From an uncultured Candidatus Rokubacteria bacterium (GTDB lineage Bacteria > Methylomirabilota > Methylomirabilia > Rokubacteriales > CSP1-6), in the NCBI GenBank assembly GCA_963789955.1, contig CAWBMV010000034.1:448001-512000 (forward strand): DNA of 64,000 bases, in the 5' to 3' direction. The position numbers were made by a program, and so were the translations under genes. Positions within the stretch are counted from its first letter, which is position 1. Each line of letters begins with the position of its first letter. Below the pieces are notes generated by a model. That model was given only the letters and a program-made list of their open reading frames with translations. It was not told the DNA's origin and made no database searches. This document shows positions 42,874-48,305 of this stretch, one piece after another.

Positions 42874-44245
42874 TCAGGAGTCGCGCTTCGGGGGATTGAT
42901 GCTGTAGGCCTTGAGCTTCCGGTAGAGGTGACTGCGCTCGATCCCGAGGCGCTCGGCGGTCCGCGTCACGTTCCAGTCGTTGGCGCGAAGCTCGGCCAGG
43001 ATATAGGCGCGCTCGAAGTTGTCGCGCGCGTCCTTGAGCGACCGGTCGCGCGCCTCTCCCGCGTGGGCCGCCGCTTCTTTTGGGCGCAGCGGCGCCGGGA
43101 GGTCCTCGGCCGTGATCACGTCGCCGGGCGCCATGATGACCAGCCGCTCGACCATGTTCCGGAGCTCGCGCACGTTGCCCGGCCAGTCGTAGGCCAGGAA
43201 ATAGCCGAGCGCCTCGCTGGAGAGCGTCTTGGCGCGCTTGCCGTTCTCGGCGCAGAACTGCGCGATGAACTGGCTCACGTGCGCGGGAATGTCGTCCTTG
43301 CGGGTCCGCAGCGCCGGGACCTCGATCGGGATGACGTTCAGCCGATAGTAGAGGTCCTCGCGGAATTGCCCCTCGCGGATCAGCGTCGCCAGATCGCGAT
43401 TGGACGCGGCGATCACCCGCACGTCCACGCGGAGCGTGTCCTTGCCGCCGACACGCTCGAACGCCTGCTCCTCGAGCGAGCGCAGGACCTTCGCTTGCGT
43501 CTTGAGGCTCATATCGCCGATCTCGTCCAGGAAGAGCGTGCCGCCGTCGGCGAGCTCGAACTTGCCGCGGCGCCGCGCCAGCGCCCCCGTGAACGCGCCC
43601 TTCTCGTGGCCGAACAGCTCGGACTCGATCAGCTCCTCGGGGATGGCGGCGCAGTTGACCTCGACGAAGGGGCGCTCGTGGCGCGCGGACTGCACGTGGA
43701 TGGCGCGCGCCACCAGCTCCTTGCCGCTGCCGTTCTCGCCATGGATCAGCACGCGCCCGGTGGTGGGCGCGGCGGTCGCGATCTGCTCGCGCAGCGCCCG
43801 GATCGCCGCGCTCTCGCCGACGATCTCGGCGCGCTGCTCGAGGCTCGCGCGCAGCGCCGCGTTCTCGCGCTCGAGCCGCGCGTGCTCGAGGGCGCGGCTG
43901 ACCGTGACCAGGATCTTCTCGAGCGACAGCGGCTTCTCGACGAAGTCGTAGGCGCCCAGACGGGTGGCCTTCACGGCGGTCTCGATCGTGCCGTGGCCCG
44001 AGATCATGACCACGACCGCTTCGGGACGCGTCCGCTTGATCTCGGCGAGGGTCTCGAGCCCGTCCATCCGGTCCATCCAGATGTCGAGGAAGGTCATGTC
44101 CGGGAGCTCGTCGGCGAAGAATCGCAGCGCGTCGGCGCCACCGCCGACCGCGGAGACGCGATAGCCTTCGTCCTCGAGCACGTCGCGCAACGTCGACCTG
44201 ATGGCCGGCTCGTCGTCGACTATTAAGTATGTGCTCGCCGGCCAT
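42874..44245 (-). CDS. Sigma54-dependent response regulator (NtrX-like), frameshift near the start
   Basis: REC (LDIWM), GENGSGKE, ESELFGHEKGAFTGA, FLDEIGDM, WPGNVREL, Fis-type HTH. Confidence 0.94.
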
Positions 44246-44297
44246 GTTTGTCCTCGGAGGGGTGCCCTAGGCACAAGCGCGCTTACGCGCGCGAGTA

Positions 44298-44347
44298 GGT
44301 TTCGGTTGTGCGTCGTGGCTCGGGTTCGGTTGGGCGTCGTGAATCGG
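44298..44347. repeat. Imperfect tandem direct repeat, 24-nt period
   Basis: ttcggttgtgcgtcgtg (44301) and ttcggttgggcgtcgtg (44325), 16/17 identical. Confidence 0.7.
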
Positions 44348-44356
44348 CTGCGCATC

Positions 44357-46583
44357 TCAGGCTTCGATCGTCACGCCGGCGCGGGAGACCGGGACTTCGA
44401 TGACGAAGCGGGTGCCGCGGGGGGCGTTGTCTTCGATCCAGATCGTGCCGCCGTGTTCGCTGACGATCTCGTGCACGATCGGGAGCCCGAGGCCCATGCC
44501 CGCGACCTTTGTCGAGAAGTACGGCAGGAAGAGCTTCTCCTTGTCCTCCGCGCTGATGCCTGGACCGTTGTCGGCGACGATGATGCGCGCGTGCCCCGCC
44601 TCGGGCCCGTGCGCCGTCTCGACCTGGACCTCGCCGGTGCCGCCGACTGCCTCGACCGCGTTGTCGACCAGGTTCAGCACCGCGCGCTTGATGTGGTCCG
44701 GATCGACCTCGAGCATCGGCAGATCGTCGGGATGACGCGTGGTGATCGACAGCGCCGGGTGCGACTCGCGATACAGGCTGGCGACGCTGTCGACCAGCTG
44801 GCGGACGTCGGTCGGGCGCGGCGCGAGCACCGGCATGCGCGCGAAGCGTGAGAACTCGTCGACCAGCCGCTTGAGCCCGTCGACTTCGTGGATGATCGTC
44901 TCGGTCGCCTCGAGCACAAGCTGCTCCTCGCCCGGCGTGCGGGCGAGCCGCCGCCGCAGCCGTTGGGCCGAGAGCTGGATCGGCGTCAGCGGATTCTTGA
45001 TCTCGTGCGCGATGCGCTGCGCGACCTCGCGCCACGCCGCGACACGCTGGGCCTTCAGGAGCTCGGTCAGGTCGTCGAGCACGACCACGGTGCCGGCGTA
45101 CTCGTTGTCCGGCCCGCGGAGCGCGGTCGCCGACGCCACGAGCGAGAGCGCCGCGCCGCCCCGTCGGACCTGGACCGCGAGCTCCGTGCTGGACGCGTTG
45201 GCGCGGCGCGTGCGCTGCACCTGGGTGACCACGGGCCTGAGGTCGGGGCCGGCGAACACGTCCTCCAGGAGGCGGCCCGGGGCCGTCACCTCGTTCACAC
45301 CCAGCATGCGGGCGGCGGCGCGGTTGATCGTCGTGAGGCGCCCCTGACGGATCGAACGAGACGACACCGGTGGTGATGGCCTCCAGGACCGTCTCGATGT
45401 AGACGCGCCGATCCTCGAGCTCCGTGTGCTTGTCGGACAGGTCGAGGTAGGCCTCCTCGAGCTGGTGCTTCGAGCGCCCCAGATCGTCGGTCATCCGGTT
45501 GAACGAGCTGACCAGGACGCCGATCTCGTCGTCGCCGTGCGCCTCCACCTTGTAGGAGAGATTGCCCGCGGCGATCTCGCGCGTGCCTTCGGCGAGCTGC
45601 TCGATCGGGCCCGTGATCCCGCGGGCGAGATAGAGCGCGAACCACGTGAACGAGAACACGACGATGAGGGTCATCAGCAGGAACAGCAGGATGTAGATGC
45701 CCTTGATCGGCGTCTTCAGGAGCTTGAGCTGCTTGTATTCGCGGAAGGCCTGCGAGATGGCGCGAACTCGCGCCTCGAGCCGCTCGGTCACGTGCGTGCC
45801 GACCACCACGACGCCCACGACGGTGCGCTCTCCGCCGCGTGTCGACCAGATCGGGACGACCGCCTCGACGAGGTCGCCGGACGACAGCTCGCGGACGGTG
45901 GTGAGCTCCTGCCCGGCGGCGCCCTGGCGCAGCTGCGCCTCGTTCACCTCGCGCGTCGCCAGGTCGCCGAGGATCGGATCCTTGACGTGCACGAGCTCCT
46001 GGCCCTGGGCGCCGAAGACGGTGATCGCGCTCAATCCGAGCCGGTCCTGCTGCTCGACGAGATACGCCGCCAGCGATTCGCGCCGGTCTTCGGCCAGGAG
46101 CCCCTCGCGATCGACCACGCGGCCGATCTGCTGCGCGTGACGCAGCGCCGTGCGCTCGAGGTTGCCGTAGTAGGTCTGCGCCACCGCGAGCGCCTGATCG
46201 AGCGGGCGCTCCACCTGCGGCTTGAACCACCCCTCGATCGACTTGTTGATGAAGTTGGACGCGATCAGGAAGATCAAGGTCGAGGGGATGAGCGAGAGCG
46301 ACAGGAACGCCAGCACGAGCTTCGCCTTGAACTTGGCGCCGATCACCTTCTCGCGCCGCTCGAACCAGAGCTTCACGAGATTTCGGAGCAGCAGCAGCAC
46401 GAGCAGCAGGAGCACGATCAGGTTCAGGTTGAGCAGCGCGAAGACCGCGATGTTGGAGGCGAGCGGCAGCTCCGGCGCGTAGACGCCGACGTCCAGGAGG
46501 TTCGCCGTGCCCACCAGCAGGACGAACCCCGCCAGGATGATCAGGTTCCGCTTGCGACGGTTCTCTTCGCTCAGGAGCGGCAC
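44357..46583 (-). CDS. NtrY-like sensor histidine kinase (TM-HAMP-PAS-HisKA-HATPase), frameshift near 45350
   Basis: SIEGWF, HAMP (DEIG.LV.SFNRMT), AWREVAQRIAHEIKNPLTPIQLSAQRL, DNGPGI, GLGL. Confidence 0.93.
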
Positions 46584-47228: not shown

Positions 47229-48155
47229 CTAGATCGTGGCGAGACCGGGGGCCGGAACCAGGCCTTCTCGGCGTGTGGTGTCTCTCGCCGCCTCGTCGGC
47301 GGCTGCCGCGGAAGCAGTCGCCGCCGCGCGGCGCTCGAACCCGACGGCGCGCTGGATCGCCTGCACGACCTCGAGGTTGAGCGCGTGGCCGCCGTTGCGT
47401 GCGATGACGTGGGCGCCGACCGGACGGCCGAGCAGCGCCAGATCCCCGAGCAGGTCGAGAATCTTGTGGCGTACGAACTCGTCGCGGAAGCGAAGGCCGT
47501 TCAGCGCGCCGCTGTTGCCGAGCACGATCGCGTTGTCGAGCGAGCCGCCGCGCGCGAGGCCGTTCTTCCGCATGATCCCGAGGTCGCGCAGGAAGCCGTA
47601 CGTCCGCGCCGGAGCGAACTCTTCGACGAACGATCGCTCGGTCGGTGACCAGGAGAGGACCTGGGTCCCGATCGCCGGGTGGTCGTTGTCCAGGGTGTAG
47701 GTGATCCGGAGCGTCTCCGCGGGAACGATGTGAATCCATCGGCCGCCGCTGCCGACCCGAAGCGGGCACGGAAGCGTCAGGGGCCGCCGGCGCGCCGACT
47801 GCTGCAACCGGCCCGCGAACGTGAGCAGCGCGACGAACGGCTTCGCGCTGCCGTCGAGCGCGGGGATCTCGGGACCGTCCACCTCGATCTCGACGTTGTC
47901 GATGCCGAGCCCGGCCGCCGCCGCCATCAGGTGCTCGACCGTCTGAATGCGGGTCCCGTTCACTCCGAGGGTGGTCGCGTAGTGCGAATTGACGACGCTC
48001 TCCGGCCGCGCCGGGATCCGCTCGCCCGTCGAACGAACCTTGAACACGACACCGGCGTCTGCCGGTGCTGGAGAGACCGTGACCCGGGCGACCTTACCCG
48101 AGTGGAGGCCGACTCCCTCGATGCTGACCGACTTCCGAATGGTGTGCTGGCGCAT
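47229..48155 (-). CDS. lpxC: UDP-3-O-acyl-N-acetylglucosamine deacetylase
   Basis: G.GLHSG, TVEHL, E.P.LDGSA, APARTYGF, GGSLDNA, EFVRHKILD..GDL. Confidence 0.96.
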   Translation of the reverse strand: MRQHTIRKSVSIEGVGLHSGKVARVTVSPAPADAGVVFKVRSTGERIPARPESVVNSHYATTLGVNGTRIQTVEHLMAAAAGLGIDNVEIEVDGPEIPALDGSAKPFVALLTFAGRLQQSARRRPLTLPCPLRVGSGGRWIHIVPAETLRITYTLDNDHPAIGTQVLSWSPTERSFVEEFAPARTYGFLRDLGIMRKNGLARGGSLDNAIVLGNSGALNGLRFRDEFVRHKILDLLGDLALLGRPVGAHVIARNGGHALNLEVVQAIQRAVGFERRAAATASAAAADEAARDTTRREGLVPAPGLATI

Positions 48156-48175
48156 TGAACCTGTAGCCGGAAATT

Positions 48176-48191
48176 AGCAACAGGGGTGCCA
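48176..48191 (-). promoter_or_regulatory. Sigma54 (-24/-12) promoter upstream of lpxC
   Basis: Minus strand TGGCAC-CCCTG-TTGCT matches consensus TGGCAC-N5-TTGCW; 20 nt upstream of the ATG. Confidence 0.8.
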
Positions 48192-48285
48192 GCGGCAATA
48201 GGGACCGCAAGTATCTGGTTATTAAGGTCGCGGTCGAAGGCGAGGCTCGCTCTGGTGGCGCGGATGACACGGGTTTCTGGACCCC

Positions 48286-48305
48286 ATGTCTCGGATGTGA
48301 GACAT
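48286..48305. promoter_or_regulatory. Palindromic candidate enhancer (UAS)
   Basis: ATGTCTC-ggatgt-GAGACAT, a perfect 7-6-7 palindrome ~95 bp upstream of the -24 box. Confidence 0.55.

Follow-up and report, generated by a model that had tools for sequence, protein, structure and literature searches.

A probable sigma54-dependent NtrY/NtrX circuit at lpxC in Rokubacteriales and its recurrence in other phyla

What controls lpxC, whose product carries out the committed step in making outer-membrane lipid A, when it stands beside the genes of an NtrY/NtrX pair? The question is raised by a stretch of 64,000 nucleotides (the window) from the genome of an uncultured soil bacterium of the order Rokubacteriales (6.77 Mb, 87% complete). 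The named homologues nearest to the regulator encoded there belong to Candidatus Rokubacteria. An earlier reading of the same letters (the original prediction) had suggested control of lpxC by the pair through sigma54. Judging from sequence, lpxC is most likely run by this neighbouring pair. The circuit itself is known from Desulfovibrio; new here are the recurrence of the lpxC sigma54 site across phyla and an enhancer shared by four of them.

The promoter of lpxC and its enhancers

The lpxC gene (47229 to 48155, reverse strand) is present in a single copy and scores above the cut-off in Pfam and TIGR00325. Thirty-six nucleotides before its ATG is a sigma54 promoter of the -24/-12 type, TGGCAC-N5-TTGCT (48176 to 48191, reverse strand), where the original prediction had placed it and conserved in relatives. 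The checks proposed with that prediction included footprinting of the lpxC upstream regions and a search for rpoN. For the first, lpxC was looked for in 40 relatives and matched in 37, of which the best 29 were fetched. A strict site precedes lpxC in 28/28 Rokubacteriales with enough upstream DNA and is found on the opposite strand in 0/28; the remaining locus, with short upstream DNA, likewise shows a site. The GG at -24 and the GC at -12 keep a fixed, conserved spacing, as in an enhancer-dependent promoter, and rpoN is present in the genome, on contig C17 (PF04552 over cut-off); the window is part of contig C34. Genome-wide, 10 strict TGGCAC-N5-TTGC[AT] sites are observed against about one expected if the halves were independent, and the halves at other spacers give 0-5 sites. 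From the spacing, transcription of lpxC is predicted to start near 48165.

If these elements were chance matches or relics, lpxC could be transcribed by read-through from the operon of archease (48305 to 48733, reverse strand; Pfam PF01951), an upstream neighbour that is conserved in Rokubacteriales, lies outside the circuit and ends with a stop codon abutting the distal enhancer. A scan of 42700-48800 for sigma70 promoters and terminators found no terminator-like site between archease and lpxC, and one RNA-run contig, which could be DNA, covers the enhancer region (48205-48398); both would suit read-through. Part of the stretch is contained in 20 of the 21 RNA runs listed and half of it in none, always as contigs; contigs from four runs cover lpxC, two ending at 48120 and 48141. 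As contigs reveal neither start nor strand, they were not used as evidence for the start site. We regard this explanation as very improbable: the conservation, the empty opposite strand and the fixed spacing speak against it, and so does the return of the same enhancer in other phyla behind other upstream genes. Archease read-through could still give a basal level of lpxC.

Upstream of the promoter lie two enhancers. The distal one (upstream activating sequence 1, UAS1; 48287 to 48304) is an 18-bp palindrome, TGTCTC-N6-GAGACA, of the type TGT-N12-ACA; the proximal one (UAS2; 48254 to 48271) is a degenerate copy 33 bp from it. They stand 113 and 80 bp before the promoter, within the range of about 80-150 bp sought for such pairs. 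The 7-6-7 palindrome of the original prediction is found at 48286-48305. The two related sites it described are real as well, being parts of the imperfect 18-bp palindromes (48304-48287 and 48271-48254); its 31-bp spacing, the register of the GGATG letters, was dropped for the 33-bp palindrome register. Both palindromes are matched, always 33 bp apart, in 17/19 loci of the same family, one exception being truncated and the other divergent; together with the 28/28 promoters, this footprinting supports the prediction.

A matrix trained on the relatives only and then scanned over the whole window genome gives UAS1 as the highest-scoring site of all. Sites of at least 14 bits number 28 genome-wide, four of them inside this 1.2 kb, namely both enhancers and a further pair of copies described below. 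In the same scan lpxC is the only sigma54-like site with two strong enhancer sites, which fits, but does not show, binding to a single target. One other sigma54-like site of the genome (G000:C1:558068, reverse strand) has a 13.7-bit enhancer-like palindrome at 113 bp, the distance of the distal site at lpxC, and is a possible second target.

Between enhancers and promoter is a 13-mer resembling a site for integration host factor (IHF; 48208 to 48220, reverse strand), with 0-1 mismatch to the IHF consensus. The stretch named in the original prediction does have one mismatch to that consensus, but the positionally conserved 13-mer is an overlapping one on the transcribed strand (48220-48208). 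It lies 28-31 bp before the sigma54 site in 15/17 loci of the genus of the window (g1), the window included, and is weak outside that genus. Five HU/IHF-family genes are present in the window genome; lapB was not seen beside one IHF gene of this genome.

The regulator, its kinase and DUF4390

Downstream of lpxC, all on the reverse strand, follow an exported DUF4390 (PlrP-like) protein (46583 to 47150; Pfam PF14334; 188 aa in close relatives; a predicted beta-sandwich), an NtrY-type sensor kinase/phosphatase (44357 to 46583; 741 aa in close relatives) and an NtrX-type REC-AAA-HTH enhancer-binding protein (42874 to 44245; Pfam REC-AAA-HTH_8). The kinase has the full set of NtrY_N, HAMP, PAS, HisKA (HEIKN) and HATPase that marks the NtrYX family on the kinase side. 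Pfam and the tree described below bear out the original naming of these genes, and the GAFTGA of the regulator is intact. After lpxC, DUF4390 and a full-length kinase are present in 19/20 Rokubacteriales relatives fetched, and GAFTGA is intact in 18/18 relatives whose regulator fell within the fetched stretch. In the window itself DUF4390 (~46985), kinase (~45347) and regulator (~44228) each carry one surplus base relative to two relatives. These are most likely assembly errors, because the relatives lack them and the base at 46983 is missing from an independent RNA-run contig.

The best match of the regulator in PDB is Brucella NtrX (5M7N) and in NCBIfam the NtrX equivalog NF051870. An IQ-TREE tree was built from 51 of 77 rows (26 left out) under LG+G4, with the GAFTGA columns removed and no mixture model; its in-group rows were picked by similarity to the window protein, and 16 paralogues serve to root it. 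The window regulator, the best matches of eight other phyla and proteobacterial NtrX form one clade (100/98), which holds the curated NtrX rows and leaves NtrC and the other paralogues outside. The window regulator groups (clade 100/98) with a Desulfovibrionaceae regulator from a DUF4390-ntrY-TIGR01777-ntrX operon.

It is highly probable, in our view, that NtrX activates lpxC through sigma54 and that this is gated by the phosphatase of NtrY together with DUF4390. The central idea of the original prediction, sigma54/NtrYX control of lpxC, is supported by the observed rpoN, by the conserved promoter, enhancers and cluster, by the NtrX clade and by Desulfovibrio experiments on the same circuit. 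Phosphorylated NtrX would bind the TGT-N12-ACA enhancer pair, whose members are separated by three helical turns; the DNA between enhancers and promoter would be bent by IHF, and the GAFTGA loop of NtrX would open the sigma54 complex, giving lpxC transcription from about 48165. NtrY would set the phosphorylation of NtrX, most likely mainly as a phosphatase, and periplasmic DUF4390 would bind the periplasmic domain of NtrY and restrain its phosphatase activity. NtrX binding, lpxC as the single target, the bias to phosphatase and DUF4390 as a third component are proposed by analogy with experiments on relatives. For the Rokubacteriales host itself we infer NtrX binding, start site, autorepression and signal.

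The role of DUF4390 can be approached through structure. DUF4390 residues 25-188 were modelled with the kinase periplasmic region 112-297 of a same-genus relative, using our own 40-row alignments. The model scores 0.71 against 0.00 for the best control; runs agree in at least 91% of contacts and partner pLDDT is at least 87. The score mark is reached by 116/157 solved pairs and 2/215 mismatched pairs, counts that hold roughly given our own alignments. The PDB holds no sequence relatives of either chain at E<=1. The model supports contact of DUF4390 with the periplasmic domain of NtrY, that is contact and not binding in the cell. A fold search with DUF4390 returned Ig/Fn3-like beta-sandwiches of a generic kind, many of them tied (top Z 9.2, with rmsd 2.3 over 91 aligned positions), and its function is therefore not derivable from the fold. 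An N-terminal hydrophobic helix is seen and the DUF4390 gene sits directly upstream of that for the kinase, as in a PlrP-type three-component system, where DUF4390 has a signal peptide. DUF4390 and NtrY would together sense the envelope.

The DUF4390-ntrY-ntrX operon would have a sigma70-type promoter of its own. Its putative -10 element, TATAAT (47165 to 47170, reverse strand), is kept in 29/30 loci within 200 nt of the lpxC stop; it is proposed from this conservation, since the sigma70 scan of 42700-48800 gave no promoter or terminator and no -35 match was found. Two further copies of the enhancer motif, missed by the original prediction, overlap this region. The third copy (47192 to 47209; 16.3 bits), a candidate autoregulatory site, lies upstream of the operon promoter, and the fourth (47172 to 47189; 14.9 bits) directly abuts the -10 element. 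Through these two extra sites NtrX probably represses its own operon in this sub-clade. Autoregulation is not general, because none of five distant genomes showed an exact TGT-N12-ACA or a sigma54 site ahead of its ntrYX operon, and the enhancer motif follows lpxC in 2/22 distant syntenic loci.

Does such transcriptional control replace the proteolytic control of LpxC by FtsH and LapB? The original prediction had called the circuit an alternative to it. The window genome has two FtsH genes above the family cut-off and a protein with TPR and a LapB-type zinc ribbon, whose best family is LapB. Rokubacterial LpxC carries an Ala-rich extension of 30-40 residues (47229-47370), whose conserved non-polar end is a candidate protease signal and resembles the E. 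coli degron in kind; of 22 LpxC ends compared, most keep such a tail, ending like PGLAAI, behind a variable linker. Replacement would be favoured by the distance of the LapB-like protein (80 bits against an equivalog cut-off of 363), by its lack of an obvious LapA neighbour, by the lack of a letter-for-letter match between the tail and the E. coli degron, and by a review that reports FtsH control of LpxC as largely enterobacterial (PMC12444477). Still, with FtsH, a LapB-like protein and the non-polar tail all present, the alternative is not supported, and we consider replacement in this lineage unlikely. Since these components are there, the sigma54/NtrYX circuit probably adds to control of the FtsH/LapB type, coexistence being more likely than replacement. 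The LapB-like gene (L423:1375-2322, G000:C1) is not beside ihfB-lapA; its neighbours are a DksA/TraR-like gene on one side and, on the other, a ComF-like gene plus a gap (names by eye). The genome also has lpxB.

A few neighbouring features can be mentioned here. A pyrimidine operon (pyrR, pyrB, pyrC, carA, carB, by eye) and a deaminase-like gene at 33772-42232 look frameshifted, consistent with a noisy assembly. Kinase stop and regulator start are separated by a spacer of about 110 bp (44246-44356) with imperfect repeats of short length and one small inverted repeat; relative L076 has a longer spacer and relative L033 has none, and it is possibly a repeat element. Directly after the regulator, 42288-42863 (reverse strand) encodes a hydrophobic membrane protein of 191 aa with H-E-x-x-H and HDW-like motifs, matching no Pfam or NCBIfam family at the thresholds applied.

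Recurrence across phyla and the history of NtrX

How far does the arrangement extend? When GTDB species genomes were scanned with a pattern that joins a sigma54 site to an lpxC start, at least 119 loci matched. By title, nearly all of the matches listed belong to Nitrospirota, Acidobacteriota, Desulfobacterota, Myxococcota, Bdellovibrionota, Aquificota, Deferribacterota, Spirochaetota or Rokubacteria, and two to Gammaproteobacteria. The N12 form of the enhancer occurs in 94/116 pattern loci listed; spacers of 11, 13, 15 and 16 occur in 3 each, 10 in 41, 9 in 24 and 14 in 18.

Phylum samples of about 30 genomes each were drawn by LpxC family to avoid selecting on the promoter; they omit the seven centre genomes, a single genome that is unpublished and three loci whose upstream DNA is short. 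A strict sigma54 site within 250 bp before lpxC is present in Nitrospirota (24/29), Aquificota (24/29), Desulfobacterota (17/29), Myxococcota (13/24), Acidobacteriota (12/27), Bdellovibrionota (11/25) and Pseudomonadota (2/29). Hence six phyla besides Methylomirabilota have the site in 44-83% of sampled genomes. On the opposite strand all seven samples gave none. TGT-N12-ACA is the top de novo dyad in Nitrospirota (17/24), Acidobacteriota (9/12), Desulfobacterota (10/17) and Bdellovibrionota (10/11), and these four phyla exceed the best dyad of 30 shuffles. The dyad is present in 16/19 loci of the family of the window; other Rokubacteriales families are looser (1/9 exact).

The genes for the pair accompany lpxC less widely. 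Within 1.5 kb after lpxC, ntrY is found in Rokubacteriales (25/28), Acidobacteriota (7/27), Desulfobacterota (8/29), Bdellovibrionota (7/25) and Pseudomonadota (8/29), and in 0/82 loci of Nitrospirota, Myxococcota and Aquificota. The open reading frames between lpxC and ntrY are DUF4390 in 16/16 tested; DUF4390 is missing from several clusters of Acidobacteriota, Desulfobacterota and Bdellovibrionota. In Aquifex, NtrC4 may be linked to lpxC; a literature search for the two together found no paper.

Co-occurrence may tell which activator is used. In 80 genomes of three phyla, with up to 21 candidates scored per genome, an lpxC sigma54 site (strict or relaxed) is accompanied by a strong match to the window regulator in 46/47 genomes. 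Among genomes with no NtrX-like match, 18/19 have no site, 12 of these 18 being Bdellovibrionota. The orthologue threshold was set after the scores were known, the NtrX-like matches were not placed on the tree, and as kin genomes are not independent, a Fisher p-value computed for these counts is disregarded.

Several observations weigh against NtrX as the activator of lpxC, or against the circuit in the form given here. The genome encodes at least 27 enhancer-binding proteins. The regulator scores 509 bits, under the 600 cut-off of NF051870; with its intact GAFTGA it is not NtrX of the alphaproteobacterial type, two tree rows of which pass that model. An exact TGT-N12-ACA also precedes 6 other of the 475 sigma54-like sites in the genome, so that the short form is not unique to NtrX. 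Among genomes with an NtrX-like match, 15/61 have no recognisable sigma54 site at lpxC. The Aquificota enhancer is a TTTTGCAAAT-type variant, and Myxococcota have the promoter (13/24) but the N12 enhancer in 0/13. The extra copies at the operon promoter (47209-47192 and 47189-47172) occur in just 6/30 loci, all of genus g1. The Desulfovibrio vulgaris regulator DVU2934 would be an orthologue of the window regulator only indirectly, by way of the Desulfovibrionaceae relative. Its published motif, GTGTG-N5-CACAC, is in another register (PMC3333781).

Such points could mean that another enhancer-binding protein, encoded elsewhere, reads the promoter and enhancers and that ntrYX is a mere neighbour. 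Fis-type HTH activators commonly use TGT-Nx-ACA palindromes, the ntrYX operon has a promoter of its own, and the separation from lpxC in three phyla agrees with this too. We nonetheless hold another activator to be improbable. Desulfovibrio NtrX binds directly, the co-occurrence is close, and copies of the motif stand at the promoter of the ntrYX operon itself. Moreover, a recognition helix ER[ST]xLx[RK]K is common to most rows of the NtrX clade and present in none of the paralogue rows shown.

If NtrX is the activator, what was its original role? The eight Pseudomonadota loci with lpxC and ntrY are Magnetococcales, judged by homologues of one locus and the tree; their gene order is lpxC-DUF4390-ntrY-ntrX. 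All 7/7 aligned regulators of this group lack GAFTGA, and a strict sigma54-like site is kept in 2/8 loci (L276, L277), about 170 bp before lpxC. In the tree the GAFTGA-less Magnetococcales, alpha- and gammaproteobacterial rows are nested within the NtrX clade (100/98), where deep branches are weakly supported. Two related Bdellovibrionota genomes have a divergent lpxC next to ntrYX: L402 (G258) keeps GAFTGA and a relaxed sigma54 site, and L403 (G243) has neither GAFTGA nor a sigma54 site. The latter is a second, independent loss of GAFTGA.

We lean somewhat towards the following history. Dedicated sigma54 control of lpxC by DUF4390-NtrY-NtrX would be what NtrYX did ancestrally. This role would predate the divergence of Pseudomonadota from Desulfobacterota, Acidobacteriota, Nitrospirota, Bdellovibrionota and Methylomirabilota, and the TGT-N12-ACA code would have been kept across them. 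Proteobacterial NtrX would then be a descendant of this regulator and not a duplicate of NtrC, GAFTGA having been lost on the Pseudomonadota stem with Magnetococcales as an intermediate; DUF4390 would bind the periplasmic domain of NtrY and report outer-membrane or LPS status. A 2026 paper describes NtrYX as derived from ntrBC (PMC13001219). The order of events is no more than likely, because rows were picked by similarity, support for deep branches is weak and the rooting depends on 16 paralogues. If correct, no other regulator of lipid A synthesis would be as widespread outside enterobacteria. The signal of NtrY and DUF4390 would be testable in a single-target system, with lpxC transcription in Desulfovibrio as readout, and the scattered envelope phenotypes of ntrYX mutants would share one origin.

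Comparison with known systems

In E. coli the same step is controlled post-translationally by FtsH-LapB-YejM proteolysis of LpxC, with no involvement of sigma54; FtsH, a LapB-like protein and a non-polar tail are found here too. A 2025 lipid A review lists NtrYX as a broad, non-specific repressor in two alphaproteobacteria only, and its text contains neither "sigma54" nor "Desulfovibrio" (PMC12444477).

The NtrY/NtrX pairs of alphaproteobacteria (Brucella, Rhodobacter, Caulobacter) share with the window the best PDB and NCBIfam match, the clade and an envelope role. They differ in lacking GAFTGA, in their broad regulons and GCA-N9-TGC motif, and in an lpxC effect described as indirect and negative; lpxC mRNA is 8.8-fold up in a Rhodobacter mutant (PMC7240162). 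Caulobacter NtrY acts as a phosphatase (bioRxiv 2021.04.17.440287). DUF4390 is reported absent from alphaproteobacteria (PMC13001219).

In Bordetella (PlrP-PlrS-PlrR), by the same account, DUF4390 is a third component, and the periplasmic partner inhibits phosphatase. As in the window, the DUF4390 gene lies directly before, and overlaps, that of an NtrY kinase with HEIKN. The Bordetella regulator differs in being a betaproteobacterial NtrX that lacks the AAA domain, the upstream neighbour is rsmB and not lpxC, and that paper mentions neither lpxC nor sigma54.

Links of sigma54 to the envelope have been made in general (PMC3162934), COG0774 is among Myxococcia sigma54 targets (PMC12316311), and an lpxC sigma54 site has been predicted in Leptospira (PMC12655853). 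The second-best NCBIfam family of the window kinase is Leptospira LIC_11548, whose neighbour LIC_11549 is the enhancer-binding protein EbpB. Given this family match and the predicted site, EbpB may belong to the same system. We found no paper stating the cross-phylum circuit or a Rokubacteria case, though one may exist in subscription journals, in regulon databases or among the PMC12316311 supplements.

The closest known system is that of Desulfovibrio. DAP-chip and electrophoretic mobility shift assay (EMSA) give lpxC, chosen because of its sigma54 promoter, as the single target of DVU2934 (named ntrX); orthologues are reported in Geobacter and Acidobacterium, lpxC adjoins the operon in Syntrophobacter, and the motif was found in Desulfovibrio only (PMC3333781). 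The EMSA probe, read by eye, contains the TGT-N12-ACA register. A kinase mutant of D. alaskensis raises lpxC alone, whose start site has a sigma54 site (PMC4045070), and the same control is listed in PMC4641369. The original prediction had guessed that novelty lay in the lineage and the readable cis-elements, which is fair but understates both this prior art and the breadth. DVU2931/DVU2934 and Dde_3000/Dde_3003 share with the window an NtrX with GAFTGA, a sigma54 site at lpxC and an enhancer 80-140 bp upstream, the comparison running through the Desulfovibrionaceae relative, in which DUF4390 and NtrY also sit in the regulator operon. The window differs in that lpxC adjoins the operon, the operon has no HD-GYP regulator and no TIGR01777 gene, the enhancer arms are TGTCTC, extra sites overlap the operon promoter, and the phylum is Methylomirabilota. 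It adds one more example, and an unusually readable one, of the circuit that was proven in Desulfovibrio, and the wider pattern matters more than this one case.

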